64,000 bases of DNA, taken from assembly GCA_050298595.1 (NCBI GenBank), contig JBNKUM010000101.1:96001-160000 (forward strand), in the 5' to 3' direction. Source of the stretch: Gammaproteobacteria bacterium (GTDB lineage Bacteria; Pseudomonadota; Gammaproteobacteria; GCA-001735895). The position numbers were made by a program, and so were the translations under genes. A model generated the notes under the pieces. It made no database searches, was not told where the DNA came from, and saw only the letters and a list, made by a program, of their open reading frames with translations. Positions within the stretch are counted from its first letter, which is position 1. The number at the start of each line of letters is the position of its first letter. Shown one piece after another: positions 18,242 to 28,025 of this stretch.

Positions 18242-18811
18242 TTGTCAATTATGAAGTTAACACTCCCCACTACGCTAACCTTATTCAGGATTATTCTAAT
18301 CCCGATATTTGTCCTGGTATTTTACCTGCCGACAAGTTGGGCGCATGCTGCTGCCGCTATTATTTATGCGGTTGCCAGCGTAACCGACTGGTTTGATGGA
18401 TATCTTGCACGAGTGTTAAATCAGGAGAGTGCCTTCGGGGCTTTTCTCGATCCGGTAGCAGATAAGCTGATGGTCGCGGTCGCGATCATACTGCTGGTAG
18501 AGGCAAATCCTGGCTTATTGATTGTAATACCCTCTATTATCATTATCAGCCGTGAGATCACCGTATCAGCACTTAGAGAATGGATGGCAGAGCTGGGCAG
18601 TAGAACCACCGTAAAAGTGAGTTTTGTTGGCAAGGCAAAAACCACTGCACAAATGTTTTCGCTATTTTTAATGATCTATCATCAGGAATTACTCGGCATA
18701 CCTATGTATGAAGTGGGCATGGCATTTTATTATCTGTCTGCAATCCTGACCATATACTCCATGATGATCTACCTGAAAGCCGCATGGCCAGTGATGCGTA
18801 GCAACGGGTAA
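18242..18811 (+). CDS. pgsA: CDP-diacylglycerol--glycerol-3-phosphate 3-phosphatidyltransferase
   Basis: TDWFDGYLAR...FGAFLDPVADK motif; follows uvrC; start may be ATG 18251. Confidence 0.95.
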   Translation: MSIMKLTLPTTLTLFRIILIPIFVLVFYLPTSWAHAAAAIIYAVASVTDWFDGYLARVLNQESAFGAFLDPVADKLMVAVAIILLVEANPGLLIVIPSIIIISREITVSALREWMAELGSRTTVKVSFVGKAKTTAQMFSLFLMIYHQELLGIPMYEVGMAFYYLSAILTIYSMMIYLKAAWPVMRSNG

Positions 18812-18930
18812 AAGAGACCCTGATTGTTTCTTGATTGTGAGAAATTTCAGTTGCAACAGAAATAATTCAAGCCCTGAGAACAGGTGTTAAGAAATCTTTA
18901 AAAAACATTGAGAAATAGGGTGATTACACC

Positions 18931-18958
18931 TTGACAGAAAAAGCTCAATGGCTAGAAT
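18931..18958 (+). promoter_or_regulatory. Stable-RNA promoter of the tRNA operon
   Basis: TTGACA-16-TAGAAT plus GC-rich discriminator 12 nt before tRNA-Gly. Confidence 0.75.
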
Positions 18959-18970
18959 ATCGCCTCTTTC

Positions 18971-19046
18971 GCGGGAATAGCTCAGCTGGTAGAGCACAAC
19001 CTTGCCAAGGTTGGGGTCGCGAGTTCGAATCTCGTTTCCCGCTCCA
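18971..19046 (+). tRNA. tRNA-Gly (GCC)
   Basis: Cloverleaf, anticodon loop ttGCCaa, TTCGAAT, encoded CCA; same order as E. coli pgsA-glyW-cysT-leuZ. Confidence 0.98.
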
Positions 19047-19052
19047 ATTTTA

Positions 19053-19078
19053 AGCCTCGTGATAATCGAGGCTTTTTG
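19053..19078 (+). terminator. Terminator-like hairpin after tRNA-Gly
   Basis: aagcctcg-tgataat-cgaggctt followed by T-run. Confidence 0.55.
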
Positions 19079-19115
19079 GTTTTAAAAGCGTTAAAATTAT
19101 CAAAGACATATCACT

Positions 19116-19189
19116 GGCTGGGTGGCAGAGTGGTTATGCAGCGGCCTGCAAAGCCGTGGACGGCGGTTCGATTCCGCCCTCAGCCTCCA
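19116..19189 (+). tRNA. tRNA-Cys (GCA)
   Basis: Acceptor GGCTGGG/CTCAGCC, anticodon ctGCAaa, discriminator U, CCA. Confidence 0.97.
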
Positions 19190-19398
19190 TATGTTATGTC
19201 ATTGTTAACCATTAAACGCTTTTATAGCATGTTGTCATTGTGAGCAAAGCGCGGCAATCTTTAGACGGTTGCCACTGCTAGCAAGCAATATCAATCATGA
19301 AGTCCACTCAGTACTGCCGGGGTGGCGTTGTGGTAGACAGTAGTTCTCCGAACTACCATGATATTCAATAAGGGCAATAGATTTACAAGCTACTCGAC

Positions 19399-19485
19399 GC
19401 CCGGGTGGCGAAATTGGTAGACGCAAGGGACTTAAAATCCCTCGGTGGAAACACCGTGCCGGTTCGACTCCGGCCCCGGGCACCA
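19399..19485 (+). tRNA. tRNA-Leu (TAA)
   Basis: 87 nt, anticodon ctTAAaa, long variable arm, CCA. Confidence 0.97.
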
Positions 19486-19913
19486 TTTGAAATCAATGAT
19501 TTATAGATTTTCCCTTCTTTTCTTATTTGACTGATGAAAGTCAGTGTAGGCAGTTCAATTCTAAAGATTTATTAATTTTTAATACACTTCTTACCAAGAT
19601 ATTTTGTGTTCCCTAAAATTGTATTCATATTTAAAAAAATATTTATAAGTAATTATCTTTAGACCATATATAAATCTTTACCTGAGATTTTAATAAAATT
19701 ACTCGACGTATTCTTTTATTAAATTATCAACCGGTTAAATAAAAAAATTATCAAGGAGGGGCAGTAACATGAATCAGTAAAATTCAACTGAAAAAATTTC
19801 TCCTCAGAAAAATTTGTGGGTAGTTTCTAGTACGAGTAAAGCTACAAGTGTATGGTACAGCGCGATTTGAGCAGCATAAAAGGTTCTAAATCCATAGGCT
19901 TTTCTGGTGGTTT

Positions 19914-19943
19914 CTCGTTCCCAAGCACTGTGTGGGAATGCAT
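19914..19943. repeat. REP-like palindrome
   Basis: ctcgttccca-agcactgtg-tgggaatgcat hairpin. Confidence 0.55.
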
Positions 19944-20018
19944 ATAGCATCTGACGAGTTTGGATTTCACACGCCTTGGCTTTCCTTGCTCCGTAGCATC
20001 TTTCTAAAAGACGTGCGA

Positions 20019-20202
20019 GTCACTTCTTTCCAACAGCTGAAAGAAGTAACCAAGAAAGCTGCCCTACGCAATCCCTTATCTCGTCAAAAGTAGGGTCAAA
20101 TCGCGGTCGGGTCAGACCCGTTCCCGACGCGGCTGTCTCTCAAATGGCATCCTTGCCATTTGACCCCGATTTGACCGTACTTTTACCGCGGGCTTGAAGG
20201 GA
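20019..20202. repeat. Multi-hairpin MITE-like element or structured ncRNA
   Basis: 12-bp hairpin at 20019-20050; 23-bp inverted repeat 20086-20108 / 20162-20184 (21/23) enclosing two further hairpins. Confidence 0.7.
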
Positions 20203-20215
20203 GAAAAAAGCGGAA

Positions 20216-20290
20216 AAACAAAATTGTCTGGAACAATATTGAACAGCTTCAACTGCCCCGAAGGGTGGAGGACAGGAAGTCCAGAATAAT
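20216..20290. repeat. Hairpin-rich intergenic repeat remnant
   Basis: caaaattgtc-tgga-acaatattg and ggac-aggaa-gtcc hairpins; resembles from memory a repeat often found beside gammaproteobacterial tRNA genes. Confidence 0.45.
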
Positions 20291-20519
20291 GACATCCCAA
20301 TTAAGTGGCCTGTGGCTCCATGAAAGTTGAGCCAAACTCTTCACCCCTAATTTTTGATCAAACATCTTTTGAACTCTAAGCATGACCAGTTGATTGCTTA
20401 CAAACTTTACCTTTTTGGAGAAAAGATTTTAATAGTAAAATTAACCGTTTAAGTAATTAAACAGTCCTGGTTTTAGATGATATTTTACTATAATCAATAA
20501 CTTAGTTACGACCGACCCG

Positions 20520-21245
20520 GTTTAGTCGAACGTCGAATGAAAAAAAGCACTGAATTTACTGGGGATCCCGGGCAGTTGTGAAAAAGCCAGAAAGACGATG
20601 AAAGAAGCTGGTGTTGCCGTTAAACACAGGATGAAATACAAGGTCACCACGAACAGTAATCATAAGCAACTTGTTTTCGATAACCTGTTACAGCGAGACT
20701 ATACCTCCGCCCAGGCGGATCAGGTCTATGCTGCAGATGTGACTTATATATGGACGCAGGACGGCTGGTTATACCGGGACGTTGTGATTGACCTGTTCTC
20801 GCGTAAAGTGGTGGGGTGGAGTATGAGTAGTCGAATGAAAGCACAGCTGATCTGTGATGCCCTGAAGATGGCAATATGGCGAAGACATCCAAAGCCTGGA
20901 CTGATCCACCATTCTGATCAAGGCAGTCAGTATGCCAGTCATGAATTTAGAACACTGCTCCAGATGAATGGGATACGGTGTAGCATGAGACGAAAAGGAG
21001 ACTGCTGGGACAATGCTGTAGTTGAAAGCAACATTGGCACCTTAAAACAGAAACAGGTGCACTGGAGGAACTATCAAACCCGTCTCTAAGCTCAGCAGGA
21101 TATATTGCAGTACATAGCCTTTTTTTATAATGGTTGCCGGTTACATTCGACACTAAATTAAGTCAGTCCGATTGAATATGAAAGACAATTTAATGAAATG
21201 AAAAAAGTAGCTTAACTGAGTGTACAAAAATGCTTGCCCACGTCA
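20520..21245 (+). pseudogene. IS3-family transposase OrfB remnant with right end
   Basis: ADVTYIWT, IHHSDQGSQYAS, GDCWDNAVVES rve motifs; 5' truncated; premature stop at 21089 with coding similarity continuing to ~21215; terminus ...gcttgcccacgtca. Confidence 0.88.
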
Positions 21246-21341
21246 CGGATCACTGGGTAAGAGAGCAATTGTTTAAGATGTTTTGATAGAAGGGCCGGAG
21301 CAGAAGAGATTTTAATTCCATAATGGTTGAGTTTTTGATGA

Positions 21342-21361
21342 GTCAAATGTAAGGCTGACCC
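21342..21361. repeat. RAYT-element right-end motif (solo)
   Basis: gtcaaatgtaaggctgaccc matches the reverse complement of the RAYT left end at 25506-25528 with one gap. Confidence 0.75.
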
Positions 21362-21724
21362 GAATGTTACTAAGTTAAGGTGTACTTCTATCTCAAAATC
21401 AACAGATTAACCCAAATGTGGTACCTTTTACACGCCAGGTTGCCACATACTAAATTTACTTAACTTAGTTGTCTTTCAAGGCTGATCTCGATTTTTATAC
21501 AATTTTTGTTTATTGTTATACGAGTAGGGAGTTTAAAAAGGGGGCATTATAATTCATAAAGCAATTGTTTTTATTGCTCTATGCACCATAATACTGAAAA
21601 TTTTTTCGCTACTTTTTGACAACTAGAGCAAAAAATGTAATAAATTGCTTCTACGGATATTTTGTTCGCTGTTGCTCTCTAATTTCTGTAGAGCGTGGTG
21701 TCATCCCCACATAGGAAAGTGAAA

Positions 21725-22270
21725 ATGAATAAATTCTCTCTTACTGCTTTGATGATGCTTCTGCAGTCGTCAATTGCATTCGCAAAGGATTGCAAGATTC
21801 CATATTCTGATAATCCAGATGTTACCTACTCCATAAATCCAGCTGTTATCGATAAGTGGAATCCTGATTTGAGTTATGCAATTAATCCCGATGTCACCTA
21901 TTCAATAAATCCAAATTTCACATATAAGTATAATCCTGACGTAACTTTCACAATTAATCCAGACCAGACTGTCAAACTGAATCCATTTATTAGCAAGTGG
22001 AATGGATATAATGTTTGCACACCAAAAGGAGAGTTTGTTGGTGCTAGCATTATAGCTAATGAAGATGTTATGGTTTTTTATATCGGTACGAACTGGATTG
22101 GCAATTTCATAACCAATAAAAAGAGCGGGTATAATTTTTTCAACCGGAAAAAGGAGTGGGAGGGATTTCTTGTGCCGACAAAATCTGCTGGATTTGCTTT
22201 TTTTAATCGTGAAAACAAATGGCTATTATCATTGACAAAGAAAAAACTATGGGCTCAGACCTCACGATAG
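21725..22270 (+). CDS. Secreted hypothetical protein with 8-aa NPxxxxxI repeats
   Basis: Signal peptide (MNKFSL...AFA); eight NP motifs at 8-residue spacing; ATG 21725 follows aggaaag. Confidence 0.75.
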   Translation: MNKFSLTALMMLLQSSIAFAKDCKIPYSDNPDVTYSINPAVIDKWNPDLSYAINPDVTYSINPNFTYKYNPDVTFTINPDQTVKLNPFISKWNGYNVCTPKGEFVGASIIANEDVMVFYIGTNWIGNFITNKKSGYNFFNRKKEWEGFLVPTKSAGFAFFNRENKWLLSLTKKKLWAQTSR

Positions 22271-22480
22271 ACACCATATTTTCGATTTGTTGATTTAGTG
22301 AATTTTCCAGAGCCAGGGATAAAAAATGGTCTGATCTCAGGAATTTGTGTCCAGCATCTCTCTTGGCAATATGGCGGGCACTATAAATTGGAGCAGGTTA
22401 AGGGGGGGTGTAGCAATGCAACGATAAGTCGGGCCGAATATGCTTATGTAACTCAGATGTAAAATGTTGGGCCTAACTCC
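22251..22480 (+). mobile_element. Internally deleted, non-autonomous copy of the RAYT element
   Basis: First ~100 bp align to 25506-25610 and last ~105 bp align to 26333-26443. Confidence 0.8.
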
Positions 22481-22649
22481 GAGGAACTAAAATCATTAAG
22501 ATTATTTTTTTATCCAGGATTTGTAAACCCTGGCTTTGTTCCGGGCCTGACGAGACTATGATCGACGACAATTAATATCCTTACACACCTTCCATTTTTT
22601 GTGGTCCATTAATACATTTCCTTATTGAAATATAGATTTCAAATGAATA

Positions 22650-22800
22650 GCTATGATTTTATTTTGGGTATGGTCGAGATGACTATGAATATCGTACGCT
22701 AAAAAGCTTATATGATTTTATTGTCTACGCGGTTTTGCTAATTGTAAGACAGCTGTATTTCATCTAAATTTAAGCGGTTGATATTATTCTTCGTGGTTGG
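22650..22800. repeat. ~140-bp direct repeat, copy 1
   Basis: gagatgactatgaatatcgtacgctaaaaagcttata...ttttgctaattgtaaga...catctaaattt recurs at 24778-24930. Confidence 0.85.
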
Positions 22801-23028
22801 AGTGTATATAATGGGGTCAAGTTTCAATTTTGAGGTGTCAAATAATATTCAAACTCCGTGTGACTCTCTTTCGCTACTCAAGGGAGAGATAAGAGAATTT
22901 TATAATAAATATGCTCCCTTTACATATCATGAGTGGGAATAAATAGAGAACAAGATGAAGCATATTAAGAATTTAGCGCAATTTAAGTATTACATTCTTC
23001 GCGCTGGACACATAATCACCTGTAAGGA

Positions 23029-23415
23029 GTGTATGCATTGAAATTATCACTACGCAGCATTGGTTTAGCTTCAGGTTTATTTTCTCTGCCATCGTTTTTT
23101 AATGAACACTATGCATTACCTGGCTACACATGCGATGGAAATAACAATTATATCAAATTCCCATATTTTTTATATGTAAATGGTACTGAAATTTTACAAA
23201 CAGATGATATTGATATTAAGGGCTACGAATTGATCAACCCTTTTAAACTAGATAAAGTTGAAAAAAATCAAAATAAAAACACCAACTTTAATAAAAGAAA
23301 GCTTTATGGCGACGAGAAAGGAGATGTTGAACTAAGCTCTTATCTCTTTGAAGGTGATTGCCACGGTAGTAGTTGTTCATTACAAGGGACCTTACATTCA
23401 ACGCTAACAAGTTGA
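23029..23415 (+). CDS. Hypothetical AT-rich protein, possibly decayed
   Basis: 128-aa ORF; aaggag RBS favours TTG 23038; no recognised motif. Confidence 0.4.
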   Translation: MYALKLSLRSIGLASGLFSLPSFFNEHYALPGYTCDGNNNYIKFPYFLYVNGTEILQTDDIDIKGYELINPFKLDKVEKNQNKNTNFNKRKLYGDEKGDVELSSYLFEGDCHGSSCSLQGTLHSTLTS

Positions 23416-23733
23416 CAAAAAGTGCAATGGTAAAAAAATCACATAGTGAGTTTCTGTATGAGTGATAACGCATCTGAAAAAAACTGCATCGTAACAAATT
23501 TTACTGCGCAATATTTTTCCACTGAGTTGGGTGGTCAAGCAGTAGAAAAATTAAAGTGAACTTTTAAGGGTAATAAATGGATAATAATTCTCTACAAAAT
23601 GTGATCCTACTTGAATATTCTTATTGTTATGCTTAAAAAAGTCGGTTTTGTACAGGTAGAAGCGCATCGTGAATCTTGTTGCTTTTTAGATTTTAATTTT
23701 TCTACACCCTGATTATGTTCACAAAATTGATGT

Positions 23734-24234
23734 ATGGAAATGATAAAGAAAAGTATTGATAGTTACTTATTTCGCGCCAGAAAATCCGGAACGTGTATTA
23801 ATAAGCAAGACCTCGAGTTACTTAATTTCAAACTAAATGGGTTAATTCCAGATTGGTATGCTGAAGCAGTGACACAGCTCCCTATTTCCGGAATTGAAGT
23901 GGGTTGGCTAGCTTTCCCAGAAGAAGTAGATTTTGATGGAATTGAGTGGGTTACTCTTCTAGATGCCAAGTTATTAAGTGAGTGCAATCTAGATAGTTAC
24001 CTGGGGAATTTACTCCGCCCACTGGGTTATTTTTCATTTGGTTACGGCTCATCGTGGTCAGGAAATTGTTTTGTTTTTAAACCAGAAGAAGGTAACGATC
24101 CACCTGTATATGAGGTCTGGCATGACGCTGCACGTAACTCGGACGAAATGTTAAACGCAATCGAAAATAAAAAAGGCGTGAAATTGGTTTCTGAATCATT
24201 CAGTAGTTTCTTTAATGATGCTATTTGTGAATAA
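23734..24234 (+). CDS. SMI1/KNR4 (SUKH)-like immunity protein
   Basis: IPDWY, then YFSFG...SGNCFVF...DPPVYEVWHD, a SUKH-type pattern. Confidence 0.6.
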   Translation: MEMIKKSIDSYLFRARKSGTCINKQDLELLNFKLNGLIPDWYAEAVTQLPISGIEVGWLAFPEEVDFDGIEWVTLLDAKLLSECNLDSYLGNLLRPLGYFSFGYGSSWSGNCFVFKPEEGNDPPVYEVWHDAARNSDEMLNAIENKKGVKLVSESFSSFFNDAICE

Positions 24235-24622
24235 AGAACATTAAAATAAGGGTGTGTCCTGCGCCTGTTGCGACCTATCCTATTGTTGAACAAGCTGTTT
24301 GTGATGGTTGATAGGCGATATAAAGGAAAAATATTTTCGAAACTATGGAGTCAGAATTTACATTATACGTCCCTGGTCGGTAGCAGATAATGAGAGTGAA
24401 AAGCTAATTAAGTGTGTCCGTATGTGAAACCCAATATTTGAATTCCTATTAGATTGTGTTGACTAACTGGGAAGAGCTTTCGTCAGTGTGCTGGCTGCCA
24501 GGGATACTTTCTTCCTTGAACTAAAAATTTCGACTGTTAGACGGACTCTGGTTTTTGAACAGGTTGAGAAGGTCTCTATGAAATTCACCTTTAGTAATAT
24601 TCATACAGGTGATTATTTTTTT

Positions 24623-24775
24623 GGTTCTTCGTAAAACAGTGTAAAAACCAAGTGAAATATAGACAATACTCCAATCCAGATAATTATATTTGACCTATGG
24701 AAATAGAAGAGCATTCCAGCCAGCTTTTAGGCATCAATACGCCCTGGGAGATCAGTCAGGTTGAACTCAATTTCA
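24623..24775 (+). pseudogene. ISL3-family left end and transposase N-terminal stub
   Basis: ggttcttcg terminus; ATG 24697 gives MEIEEHSSQLLGINTPWEISQVELNF, like ISL3 transposase N-termini; cut off by the repeat at 24778. Confidence 0.6.
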
Positions 24776-24777
24776 TG

Positions 24778-24930
24778 GCTATTGTTTTCTTTGGAGTATA
24801 GTGGAGATGACTATGAGTATCGTACGCTAAATAGCTTATATATTTTTTTATCTACGCTGTTTTGCTAATTGTAAGATGGCTGTTAATCATCTAAATTTTA
24901 ACTCTGAATATTATACTTCTTAGTGGTGGT
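24778..24930. repeat. ~140-bp direct repeat, copy 2
   Basis: Diverged copy of 22650-22800. Confidence 0.85.
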
Positions 24931-25150
24931 TCAAATAATACGGCAAGTTACTTTTTCGTGATGTCAAATCTAAGTCATGACACTATGACCTGACCCCGTT
25001 AATTTTTCCTCGTTTGAAGTGATAGAAAGAAACAATATATTATGAGATCGCGTATATAAGGCTTCTGTTTCAAATCAGAAGCAATATTACAGCAATATAT
25101 TTTTTGTTTTTAAAAGTTAAGCTTTGGATTAGAAGAGAATAGCAAACCCA

Positions 25151-25474
25151 ATGACACGGATAATAATTAGTCTATTATGTGTATCAATTTTTAGTGGCTG
25201 CACATCCAGTAATGGTAAACCGATCACCGGTAAGGAGTTATATGGATTCTATTGTGCTGGCTGTCATATGGAAAGCGGGGCTGGCCATTTTTTACGGGGT
25301 ATCCCGCCGTTAACTCAAAACAAAATTCTCAATCCAACACCGCTTCAACCTTCTCAGCTCAGGCGTAAGCTCAAAACTAGTCCAAGCCATAATAGGACAA
25401 TACCGCCCTTTGGCAACATCAACGATGAGCAGGAAAGATTGATCTTGCGGTATATACAATCGCTGTCCGAGTGA
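25151..25474 (+). CDS. Monoheme c-type cytochrome lipoprotein
   Basis: Lipobox FSGC; GKELY...CAGCH heme motif. Confidence 0.8.
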   Translation: MTRIIISLLCVSIFSGCTSSNGKPITGKELYGFYCAGCHMESGAGHFLRGIPPLTQNKILNPTPLQPSQLRRKLKTSPSHNRTIPPFGNINDEQERLILRYIQSLSE

Positions 25475-25505
25475 TATTTTCCCCTGGTTTTTCCTGACTA
25501 ACTCA

Positions 25506-26443
25506 GGGGTCAGGCCTTACATTTGACACCAGGTTTTCGATTTGGTAATTTTCTGAATTTTCCAGGTCAGGGGGCAAGAAAATGGCCAGACCTCTACGAA
25601 TTGAGTTTGCGGGGGCCTTATACCACATCACATCTCACGGCAATGCACAGGGCGAGATTTTCCTGAATAATGCTGATCGGATAAAGTTTCTTGATATATT
25701 AAGTCAAGCTGTTATTCGATATGACTGGTACTGTCATGCCTATTGCCTGATGGATAATCATTATCACCTTCTGATTGAAACCGGCACACCAACACTGTCC
25801 AAAGGAATGAAATATCTCAATGGCTCCTACACGCAGTCTTTTAACCGGCTGCATCAACTCTTTGGGCATGTTTTTCAGGGTCGTTATAAAGCCATACTTG
25901 TTGACAAAGAAAGCTATCTACTGGAATTGTCGCGCTACATCGTCCTTAATCCAGTCAGGGCTCTGATGGTGCGCAGTGCAAAAGAATGGCGCTGGAGTAG
26001 TTATCGAGCAACAGCAGGCCAGACTGAAGCTCATCCCTGTTTAACGATTGACTTGGTATTGTCCCTTTTGGGGAAAAGACGCAGAAAAGCACAGGAGAAC
26101 TATAGGGCTTTTGTTGTAGAAGGCCGCAATCAACCCTCTCCCTGGGAAAGACTTAAGAATCAAATCTATTTAGGTAGTGATCAATTTGTAGAAGATGTGC
26201 AGAGTAAGTTGGATCCAGATCAATCACTCAAGGATATTCCCAGAAAACAGAAACGGGCGGCACAGCGACCACTTAGCGATTACGCCAAGAAGGGTGTTGA
26301 GAGAAATTCAGCGATGGCACAAGCCTACCTTAGCGGGTACTACACATTGGAGCAGGTAGGTGAGTATTTTGGGTGCAGCTATGCAACGGTAAGTCGCGCT
26401 GTAAAAGCTTTTGAGACTCAAATGTGAAATGTAAGGATGACCC
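25506..26443 (+). mobile_element. RAYT-type element bounded by imperfect ~23-bp inverted ends
   Basis: Left ggggtcaggccttacatttgaca; right tgtgaaatgtaaggatgaccc overlapping the transposase stop. Confidence 0.75.
25582..26427 (+). CDS. REP-associated (Y1/IS200-like) HUH tyrosine transposase with C-terminal HTH
   Basis: MARPLRIEF start, CLMDNHYHLL (HUH), FQGRY, YIVLNPVRA (catalytic Tyr), WSSY, C-terminal TLEQVGEYFGCSYATVSR HTH. Confidence 0.92.
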   Translation: MARPLRIEFAGALYHITSHGNAQGEIFLNNADRIKFLDILSQAVIRYDWYCHAYCLMDNHYHLLIETGTPTLSKGMKYLNGSYTQSFNRLHQLFGHVFQGRYKAILVDKESYLLELSRYIVLNPVRALMVRSAKEWRWSSYRATAGQTEAHPCLTIDLVLSLLGKRRRKAQENYRAFVVEGRNQPSPWERLKNQIYLGSDQFVEDVQSKLDPDQSLKDIPRKQKRAAQRPLSDYAKKGVERNSAMAQAYLSGYYTLEQVGEYFGCSYATVSRAVKAFETQM

Positions 26444-26871
26444 TGAAGCTCGCAAAAGCCTGTTCTTAGAGTCCATTTGCTCAGCCAGAAAATCAAGGAA
26501 GGGGGCCGCCGGGAAGATGCTGTTCGTTCTTGACCGAATCCTACGGTGACTGATAGGTTTTAGGATAAGGAGCCGATATATCGTCTCAGAACTAAGTTAG
26601 CCACTAATTCTAGAGATTTCCCGACTAAGAAAGTAATTATTTCATGAATTTCACGTTTTTTTCACGAAATGGAATTAGAATAATTTCAGGGATGAGAAAG
26701 AGCCGATCTCTTCGGTTCTTAATAAAAAACCACATTTGTTGAGTATTATGGATAGATGTGCGGCATTATACCTACAAGCATATAATTGTCTTCCCACATC
26801 CCTTATAACTACTTAACAAATATCCAGGATGAATTGACAACAGTTTAGTTACAACCGAAAGGGTGTATTTT

Positions 26872-27150
26872 ATGAGTAGTATTGTATTAGCAGTTATATC
26901 CTTAAGCCTTGCCTTTGTTTTAATGGTCATGTGGATCCGGGCTCGGAGAGCTGCGCTTCGAGCTGAAGTTGTGGCATACGGGTTGCGTGCTCAGGATGAC
27001 AGAGATGAAGATACCAAAACTAATCTGATCAACAGGCATAAAGAATATAATGTGGCTATCAGTAAGCTGGATCAGATGGGACAGATTAAGCGTGATAAGT
27101 GGGGCCATTGGGTCTGGACAGAATCGGGGCAGCAATTGGGCCAGGGATGA
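26872..27150 (+). CDS. 92-aa single-pass membrane protein, paralogue A
   Basis: N-terminal TM; 53/92 identical without gaps to 30596-30874. Confidence 0.85.
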   Translation: MSSIVLAVISLSLAFVLMVMWIRARRAALRAEVVAYGLRAQDDRDEDTKTNLINRHKEYNVAISKLDQMGQIKRDKWGHWVWTESGQQLGQG

Positions 27151-27314
27151 TGTTTGATTTGGCTATCAAAATGATAGCCCGTTAAACCCACAATAATCAT
27201 TTAAAATATCCAGTCAATTTTGATCTTAAGTACCCGGAGTTTGATTATCTATCAGACGGCCTTTCAGTAATTAAGTAAGAACTCACTCTATAGAAACAAC
27301 TGGGGAATTAATAA

Positions 27315-28025
27315 ATGATTATAGCCAGACAACCAATTGATCTTCACTGCCCTGAAACCGATATCTATCATCGATTGTTATCACTGGATGGCAAACACAT
27401 AGTGGAGCTGGGTTGTGGCAGCGCCGATATTACTCGAGACATTGCTTCTTCAGGTAGTGGTCGAAAAGTATGGGCGTTTGAAGTCGATGAGATAGCTCAT
27501 CACAAAAACTTACAAATCACTGACCTGCCGAATGTGACTTTTGGTCTTGCTGGTGCGCAGGAGATTCCATTGGCTGATGCATCGATGGATGTCGTTTTTA
27601 TGTTTAAATCGATGCACCATGTTCCTTTAGACCTGATGGATCAATCGCTGCTGGAAATACGACGAGTGTTAAAGCCTGGTGGGCTGGCTTATATCTCTGA
27701 ACCTGTCTTTGACGGTGAGTTTAATGAAGTTCTACGTTTATTTCACGATGAGCAAAAAGTCCGTCAAGCGGCTTTTAGTACATTGGAAAGAGCAGTTCAG
27801 GACAATCAGTTTATTCTGCTCGAAGAAGTTTTTTTTACAACCTCGATGAAATTCGCCAATTTTTCTGAGTTTGAAAATAAAGTCATCAAGGCAACTCATT
27901 CAGATCACAAATTAAGCAATGTACTGCACAAGCAAGTTAAACAAGCCTTTGAAAAACATCTTGGTGATGAGGGTGTTCACTTTAAACAGCCTATTCGTGT
28001 GGATCTATTACAGCGGCCGATTTGA
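27315..28025 (+). CDS. Class I SAM-dependent methyltransferase
   Basis: IVELGCGSA, IPLADASMDVV, RVLKPGG motifs. Confidence 0.9.
   Translation: MIIARQPIDLHCPETDIYHRLLSLDGKHIVELGCGSADITRDIASSGSGRKVWAFEVDEIAHHKNLQITDLPNVTFGLAGAQEIPLADASMDVVFMFKSMHHVPLDLMDQSLLEIRRVLKPGGLAYISEPVFDGEFNEVLRLFHDEQKVRQAAFSTLERAVQDNQFILLEEVFFTTSMKFANFSEFENKVIKATHSDHKLSNVLHKQVKQAFEKHLGDEGVHFKQPIRVDLLQRPI

Follow-up and report, generated by a model that had tools for sequence, protein, structure and literature searches.

Positions 22251-22480 of the DNA analysed here hold a short segment with inverted repeats at its ends, and the question is whether this segment is a mobile derivative of the transposase gene located 3 kb away or a dead remnant. 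The window, that is, the whole stretch of 64,000 nucleotides that was analysed, corresponds to positions 96,001 to 160,000 of contig JBNKUM010000101.1 of a Gammaproteobacteria bacterium (assembly GCA_050298595.1, 5.49 Mb in 119 contigs), designated below as C101:96001-160000. A first-pass annotation had described the segment as a 230-bp mini-element derived from a RAYT gene and both of its ends, and had proposed that this subfamily moves or duplicates as a unit with defined ends, leaving derivatives similar to miniature inverted-repeat transposable elements (MITEs). The evidence argues strongly that the mini-element (hereafter, the mini) is a relic, namely a TIRtron copy that is dead and has lost its interior. 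TIRtrons are units in which a RAYT-like gene, called TIRYT, is accompanied by long terminal inverted repeats. The class was already described in 2013, and the window provides a good example of it, not a new kind of element.

The origin of the mini is seen in a pairwise BLASTN comparison of positions 22151-22600 with positions 25401-26560, which gave two collinear matches. On the left, 22245-22345 aligns with 25500-25602 (77 of 103 positions identical, 75%; E 5e-16) and, on the right, 22374-22467 aligns with 26333-26432 (75/102, 74%; E 1e-14), all other matches being chance ones of 12 and 20 bases. Against the whole genome the two matches have E values of 1e-12 and 2e-11. About 730 bp of the full copy (25603-26332) are gone from the interior, and the mini carries both ends of the unit, as the first-pass annotation had claimed. 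Its limits were also placed exactly, since 22251 is the first base of the left inverted repeat (GGGCTCAG...) and 22480 the last base of the right one (...CTAACTCC). The parts of the mini are the following:

22251..22274, + strand: left terminal inverted repeat of the mini, GGGCTCAGACCTCACGATAGACAC, 17/24 against the family consensus GGGGTCAGGCCTTACATTTGACAT
22275..22345, + strand: remnant of the transposase 5' leader and first codons, aligned with 25530-25602; ATG at 22327, then GTC TGA
22346..22373, + strand: unaligned junction filler of 28 bases at the internal deletion, between the two BLAST matches
22374..22456, + strand: remnant of the last part of the gene, with the putative helix-turn-helix, aligned with 26333-26421 at 74%; translation ...LEQV..GCS.AT.SRA...TQM* in the parent frame
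22457..22480, + strand: right terminal inverted repeat of the mini, ATGTAAAATGTTGGGCCTAACTCC, 19/24 against the reverse complement of the consensus

Both repeats are retained in the mini, and so are the 5' leader, which includes the start codon, and ~30 codons from the end of the transposase gene. The start codon stands at the same offset as in the full copy, as had been noted, though a stop follows soon after it (ATG GTC TGA, 22327-22335). The 3' remnant is still in the frame of the parent up to the position of the parent's stop, over a short stretch. Taken together, the two repeats match the consensus at 36/48 positions (75%), a value equal to the 74-75% found over the whole mini, so there is no sign that the repeats have been preserved; the two ends of the mini are complementary to each other at only 13/24 positions. 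When the mini was aligned globally with the full copy at a low gap cost, the result was overfitted, scattering the junction filler over the parent, and was discarded.

The full copy is a unit of 939 bp (25506-26444) on the same strand as the mini, with these features:

25506..25529, + strand: left terminal inverted repeat of the full element, GGGGTCAGGCCTTACATTTGACAC, 23/24 against the consensus; tip GGGGTCAG
25582..26427, + strand: intact TIRYT gene, 281 amino acids; HUH (H60-Y61-H62 in NHYH), tyrosine motif YIVLNP (Y119), putative C-terminal helix-turn-helix
26422..26444, + strand: right terminal inverted repeat of the full element, one base shorter than the consensus; holds the gene stop TGA (26425-26427)

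The ungapped count of 16/24 for this right repeat reflects the one-base deletion. The 281-residue protein matches Pfam Y1_Tnp (E 2.2e-10; 41.2 bits, cut-off 23), and NHYH (residues 59-62), YIVLNP (119-124) and F98-Q99 can be read from its sequence. The putative helix-turn-helix tail (residues 245-280) gives weak, sub-threshold scores with HTH_28 (20.0 bits, cut-off 25) and HTH_23 (18.8 bits, cut-off 24.6). A sequence search of PDB gave no match for the protein at E up to 0.01, and Rfam gave none within 21500-27500 at E up to 1. No stable hairpin was recognised within a single repeat by eye, without folding.

The RAYT label has to be corrected. The score of the protein with the NCBIfam RAYT model NF047646, an equivalog model, is 66.1 bits, under the cut-off of 80. 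Judged from its sequence, the element at 25506-26444 is a TIRtron and its gene a TIRYT, not a REP-associated RAYT (REP, repetitive extragenic palindrome), because NHYH, YIVLNP, the putative helix-turn-helix tail and the GGGGTCAG tip match published descriptions. Full-text searches for TIRYT or TIRtron gave only three papers (PMC3733652, PMC6006769 and PMC5581495). The names were given by Di Nocera, De Gregorio and Rocco (2013, BMC Genomics 14:522, PMC3733652) to RAYT-like genes with long inverted repeats (TIRYTs) and to the units that contain them (TIRtrons). According to the passages of that paper on these units, the tip motif GGGGWSAS is common to some terminal inverted repeats, not all, and the repeat families are moderately abundant, with members that are single, dimeric or grouped; the same passages leave the activity of TIRYTs untested. 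The window element agrees with them in its RAYT-like HUH/Y1 gene, in long terminal inverted repeats unrelated to GTAG REPs, in a tip (GGGGTCAG) that fits GGGGWSAS, and in a moderate abundance of repeats, some of them paired or clustered. The TIRtron passages do not include internally deleted copies that keep the leader and the gene tail, many decayed gene fragments, or one 24-bp repeat conserved across several orders, whereas all three are found here.

In the classification of Quentin, Siguier, Chandler and Fichant (2018, BMC Genomics 19:475, PMC6006769), the sections on TnpA-Y1 place most TIRYTs in subclass 2.1. This subclass is described there by NH[YF]H or NHVH, Y[IV]HLNP or YIELNP, FQ or W[EQ], a helix-turn-helix tail (Bac_DnaA_C, HTH_23 or HTH_28) and no REP, with an average of 1.9 copies in each genome (49% identity), and the non-IS200 subclasses are said to be without typical features of insertion sequences (IS). 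In a comparison by eye with Table 1 of that paper, NHYH, YIVLNP (one position off the printed consensus, Y---NP being kept) and F98-Q99 agree with the subclass 2.1 motifs. The lack of a REP nearby and the patchy taxonomic spread are also shared with the subclass as it is described there, and the sub-threshold HTH_23 and HTH_28 matches lie where its tail is expected. The copy numbers differ from the figures printed for it: here there are 12 further full or partial places in one genome and, elsewhere, copies 88-94% identical from repeat to repeat. In the parts of Bertels, Gallie and Rainey (2017, PMC5581495) dealing with the same set, these genes are Group 1 RAYTs, the most IS-like group, with 6.2% duplicates and 1.2% on plasmids. 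The first-pass annotation had set the mini against the view of RAYTs as domesticated single-copy genes. The idea that this gene overturns that view is not supported, since the gene scores under the curated RAYT threshold, and IS-like traits of TIRYTs are already in print in the passages cited.

Two better known systems can be compared with the element. REP/REPIN-RAYT systems, such as E. coli TnpA-REP and the Pseudomonas RAYTs, likewise have a class-2 Y1 enzyme, a gene located between inverted copies of its cognate repeat, and short gene-less inverted-repeat derivatives. Unlike them, the element described here is not accompanied by GTAG-tagged hairpin REPs, nor by a repeat population of high copy number, its gene is multi-copy and decaying, and its NCBIfam RAYT score is sub-cut-off. 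The IS200/IS605 elements share the HUH/Y1 core (Pfam Y1_Tnp), the small size with only one gene, and the presence of many copies and partial copies. However, IS200/IS605 elements have subterminal hairpins, Y---Q and no helix-turn-helix tail, as far as the pertinent sections of PMC6006769 describe them, while inverted repeats, Y---NP and a putative tail of this type are present here.

The family is well represented in the genome of the window. The full unit, used as a BLASTN query (query position 1 is window 25481), detected 12 further full or partial places on 10 contigs. For instance, C101:70949-70253 is a copy of the 5' two-thirds at 81% identity. A second both-ended deletion derivative of ~416 bp is located at C90:23276-22861 (minus strand), where query positions 17-249 are joined to 776-955; its left repeat has 2 mismatches against the consensus, its right tip is lost and its break points are unlike those of the mini. 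One-ended pieces are present on C101 (48801-49071), C30, C119, C57, C56, C12 and C90, and more distant copies on C97, C94 and C16. The C97 copy has the sole other intact gene (56% amino-acid identity), and tblastn detected many remoter Y1 paralogues (25-44% identity), on 21 contigs in all. Judged by query ranges, the right end is kept at six places and the left end at four, besides the mini and the full copy. The mini itself matches only itself, both ends of the full copy and a right end on C90. The genome-wide count that had been suggested shows a dispersed family and a non-coding mini present in a single copy.

The units have defined limits. The similarity among five aligned left ends (full copy, mini, C101:70949, C90 and C12) and among eight aligned right ends (full copy, mini, C101:49071, C90, C30, C119, C57 and C56) extends up to the repeat tip, and the sequences outside are unrelated. 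The 24-base repeat has 11 matches at up to 5 mismatches in 5.49 Mb, too few for a high-copy REP. Matches at 6-7 mismatches amount to noise (61 against 8-51 for ten shuffled patterns), and only those at up to 5 mismatches were used; the shuffled control covers the 6-7 mismatch level only. The shorter pattern GGGTCAGRYCT occurs 28 times. No pair of copies exceeds 81% nucleotide identity, so nothing in this genome has moved recently.

At least two further repeat variants are present in the same genome, with a shared tip GGGGTCAGGTCT and different inner parts (...TTTGATTTATGAT and ...AGCTTTTAGCCT), at C17:30391, C80:2792, C76:82029, C84:22589 and C94:213739/213786, and at C94:190626, C78:58401 and C21:50462. 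Some of them adjoin remoter Y1 genes (for example, C17:30460, C94:190672 and C94:214065), and the genome thus hosts several TIRYT subfamilies.

The position of the mini provides a clue to its history, since it lies at the end of an open reading frame (ORF):

21695..22270, + strand: upstream ORF, 191 amino acids, no Pfam family; last codons and stop supplied by the left repeat of the mini

Two relatives of this ORF, a paralogue at C107:2-543 (84%) and another in G001, a genome of the same genus (G001:C3, 83%), both end in ...KK(N/H)L-stop. The window ORF continues into the repeat (...KKKLWAQTSR-stop), and its similarity to both relatives breaks exactly at 22250/22251. As the ORF reads into the left repeat, the mini supplies its stop codon; no other function is evident for this relic. 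G001:C3 was considered as an orthologous empty site and rejected, being orthologous to the C107 paralogue and not to the window locus.

The preferred reading can be set out as a series of steps. An element would have inserted at the very 3' end of the ORF, which would have come to end inside the left repeat; its interior would have been lost by deletion, before or after landing; and the mini would have drifted since then without selection. IS200/IS605 and E. coli TnpA-REP suggest, by analogy, that members of this family may move by cutting and rejoining single-stranded DNA, with a 5'-phosphotyrosine link; their ends would be recognised by means of the repeats and possibly also of the putative helix-turn-helix.

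Several points weigh against this scheme. The insertion is deduced from a paralogue only, and the point of the break is also where the ORF ends. The empty-site search that had been proposed, carried out with the surroundings of both the mini and the full copy, gave no orthologous empty site in 30 relatives. Four relatives match the sequence downstream of the full copy, but only from ~110-190 bp past the right repeat (about 26560-26640 onward); the upstream cytochrome c gene is on other contigs there, and the whole neighbourhood differs. No target-site duplication, that is, no direct repeat across the ends of the mini, was recognised by eye. The right flank of the mini is not unique: it consists of an unrelated non-coding repeat (rep2, see below), and the junction between the 7-base repeat tip and rep2 is also present at C84, with rep2-like sequence also following the full copy G001:C6. 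The right boundary could, then, belong to a larger repeated arrangement. Finally, the deletion may have preceded or followed the insertion, and the mechanism is drawn by analogy only.

The family is also present in other genomes. A scan of one genome per species gave 60 loci with relatives at 45-84% amino-acid identity (best segment) in hosts that, by record title, include Methylococcales, Nitrosomonas, Undibacterium, Gallionellaceae, Porticoccaceae, a Nitrospirales bin and others. At nearly all full-length loci the left repeat is GGGGTCAGGCCTTACATTTGACAT and the right one its reverse complement, and remoter loci retain just the tip GGGGTCAGGYCTT. A 12-base core was found within 2 mismatches at 29/33 left ends and 28/33 right ends (counting only ends with full outside windows). 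A 21-base version of the repeat, at up to 3 mismatches, occurs 17, 15, 5, 6 and 20 times in five genomes, and the reversed control 0 times in each. Paralogous copies 88-94% identical are present within Methylotuvimicrobium sp. KM1, Methylomicrobium sp. wino1, Nitrosomonas communis Nm44, Nitrosomonas sp. Nm34 and Undibacterium fentianense. Except in the Undibacterium pair, their likeness begins ~77 bp ahead of the start codon and ends ~30-40 bp downstream of the gene; as this is the interval between the repeats, the unit is bounded by them. No consistent target-site duplication was seen by eye among family copies, and flanks with TTA before the left repeat and TAA after the right one recur in Nitrosomonas copies. 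One relative comes from a genome of the same genus as the window (G001:C6; locus L070, 1501-2415) and has an intact gene for 281 amino acids with 84% DNA identity to that of the window. Both its repeats are decayed (left tip GGAGCATAGCTTACACATTTGAC, right end barely recognisable), and it looks like an immobilised copy with the gene still open.

A protein tree was built without L034 (internal stop) and without L002 and L006 (longer matches). The window copy is sister to L001 (85%), the Nitrosomonadales rows are interleaved with Methylococcales rows, and the eight Undibacterium rows form one clade. Nitrosomonadales needs three changes on the tree, two of them forced by starred branches. This topology suggests, short of proof, transfer of the family between the beta- and gammaproteobacterial classes.

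Gene-less copies are also present in the Methylotuvimicrobium sp. KM1 chromosome (G031), where repeat pairs 244 bp apart are found at two places. They delimit two units of 267 bp (2559330-2559596 and 2560254-2560520), 924 bp apart, each formed by a TIRtron left end of ~166 bp joined to a right end of ~115 bp. These two minis are 100% identical, including 7 bases past the right tip, and their flanks are otherwise unrelated; they are only 69-78% like the two full copies of that genome. A partial relative exists in Methylomicrobium sp. wino1 (80% over 190 bp), and no empty site for the KM1 minis was found in two related genomes (G032 and G033). The identical pair indicates that gene-less, both-ended derivatives exist and can duplicate, and the different break points of the C90, KM1 and window derivatives point to independent deletions. 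Accordingly, the proposal that a unit with defined ends multiplies and leaves minis is supported for the family, given its repeat-bounded copies, the 88-94% identical paralogues and the derivatives on C90 and in KM1; the mini in the window gives no sign of having moved as a mini.

MITEs arise from classical insertion sequences by internal deletion: both ends are kept, the interior is lost, and the product is non-coding and shorter than 300 bp. The mini shares several of these traits, being of 230 bp and non-coding, with both inverted repeats of an autonomous element recognisable. It differs from the classical case in that the parent encodes a Y1 enzyme instead of a DDE enzyme, the mini is single and decayed, and a target duplication is not seen. 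That the mini is a true MITE, still or recently mobilisable in trans by the TIRYT 3 kb downstream, would agree with the presence of both ends close to an intact gene and with the KM1 pair, which has the same design and, through its identity, its different flanks and its modest likeness to the resident full copies, fits mobilisation in trans. However, the several copies at different sites expected of a MITE are missing, as the mini has one copy in the genome and a DNA search with its surroundings gave none in 30 relatives; its repeats have decayed to 17/24 and 19/24, with the low mutual complementarity given above; and it is only 74-75% identical to the nearby full copy. Moreover, contigs of four sequencing runs (one study, possibly the source of the assembly) pass through the mini unchanged and have no joint that skips the mini or the full copy, although contigs cannot show rare variants or excision. 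Mobility of the mini is, on this evidence, improbable.

If the neighbouring full copy had been duplicated locally as an ordinary segment, and one copy had then undergone deletion, with no transposition, this would explain why the two lie 3 kb apart on the same strand with rep2 near both (22500-22890 and 24767-24969). The first-pass annotation had held that similarity extending beyond the inverted ends would imply a duplication of this kind. It does not pass them: the likeness between the mini and the full copy ends at the repeat tips on both sides, and their flanks do not match each other in the genome BLAST. Moreover, rep2 lies on opposite sides, after the mini but before the full copy; repeat-bounded copies of the family are found on many contigs; and the identity of the mini to its neighbour (74-75%) exceeds that to G001:C6 (about 65-72%) by a margin too small for a recent local origin. 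Such a duplication is very unlikely. An equally slight chance is left to a fortuitous juxtaposition of left-end and right-end fragments of separate copies, left by nested insertions or deletions in this repeat-rich region, for although one-ended fragments abound in the genome and 28 unaligned bases separate the halves, these share one strand, follow the expected order and have diverged from the full copy to the same degree (75% and 74%), and the other both-ended derivatives (C90, Methylotuvimicrobium) make a single deletion simpler.

Short duplications of the repeat tip together with local flank, in the same orientation, are located directly outside many TIRtrons (L002, L003, L004, L006, L007, L011, L013, L015, L020, L021, L022, L024, L025 and L031). 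Often the duplicated tip has a length of exactly 7 bases (GGGGTCA or TGACCCC), and 7-12 bases of flank come after it; for instance, the right side of L002 reads CCTGACCCC GCGTGGTG TGACCCC GCGTGGTG. The identical KM1 minis also share 7 bases past the right tip. Extra tips in the same orientation occur within 70 bp at 8/29 left ends and 8/28 right ends, while extra tips in the opposite orientation are absent (0/29 and 0/28); control windows 300 bp farther out on each side have 0/26 in the same orientation and 1/26 in the opposite one. Since the flank part differs between loci, the duplications arose locally.

A wider reading would join these observations. The GGGGTCAGGCCTTACATTTGACAT TIRtrons might be currently active and spreading horizontally, with an HUH/Y1 and helix-turn-helix enzyme whose substrates are inverted-repeat ends and which also mobilises gene-less minis in trans, unlike every characterised Y1 element, and a cut ~7 bases from the tip might leave the duplications of tip and flank (GGGGTCA or TGACCCC). 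We put this forward tentatively and regard it as doubtful; if true, it would mean a transposition chemistry distinct from those of IS200/IS605 and REP/RAYT. The relic in the window and its relatives add comparative evidence for a barely studied class, namely repeat-bounded copies and many decayed fragments in one genome, together with independent both-ended deletion derivatives and a freshly duplicated gene-less pair in one named chromosome. This evidence bears on whether the Y1 enzymes of elements that end in inverted repeats are true transposases, a question left open in the relevant passages of PMC3733652 and PMC6006769, and it supplies candidate substrates for a first biochemical test.

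The surroundings of the mini contain other repeats:

22500..22890, + strand: rep2 copy, an unrelated non-coding repeat directly after the mini, given as context only
22813..22866, + strand: decayed head-to-head repeat pair (GGGGTCAAG..., then GTGTCAAATAATA...), identified by eye in the alignment
24961..24997, + strand: solo right-repeat remnant (ATGTCAAATCTAAG..., 14-base insert, CCTGACCCC) at the end of a rep2 copy, a 5-mismatch match in the genome scan

The second rep2 copy of the window is at 24767-24969. This repeat is present at about 20 places in the genome, at 69-85% identity (among them C85, C84, C8, C56, C66, C76, C46, C40, C19, C94, C100, C92, C27, C12, C14 and C101:71463-71685), and in 2 of the 30 relatives searched (G001 and G012). 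Its conserved core of ~150 bp contains two TACGCT boxes and a promoter-like TTGCTA-N17-TATCAT; no Rfam match, no consensus RNA structure on either strand and no common downstream ORF were found for it. The C84 copy begins 7 bases inside the position of the right tip of the mini, with TAACCCC, and in at least four other copies (C85:167840, C56, C94:229549 and C76) the right-repeat tip abuts rep2 at differing positions, as judged by eye. TIRtrons may land before rep2, or rep2 may sit next to tips, through target preference or co-mobilisation. Better-kept counterparts of the head-to-head pair are found at C84 and G001:C6.

Two joints seen in the contigs of the sequencing runs were set aside. One, from 22564 to 24820 (side 28), runs between the two rep2 copies and has the look of an artefact caused by the repeat; the other is a 262-base contig of depth 2.1 that joins 25763 back to 25506 with 25 other letters, and is too thin to interpret.

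The region 18800-27300 of the window is gene-poor and rich in repeats, with an rve integrase-core fragment (20598-21089), a weak SUKH-1-like ORF (23734-24234) and small ORFs without a family. The order of rep2, a decayed repeat pair, ~530 bp and a TIRtron is common to window 24767-26444 and C101:71685-70253, with nearly equal spacing. What differs is the spacer of ~530 bp, which contains a small cytochrome c gene (25151-25474) in the window and, in a sequence unrelated to it, another ORF at the C101:70949 locus; the two loci are not simple segmental duplicates.

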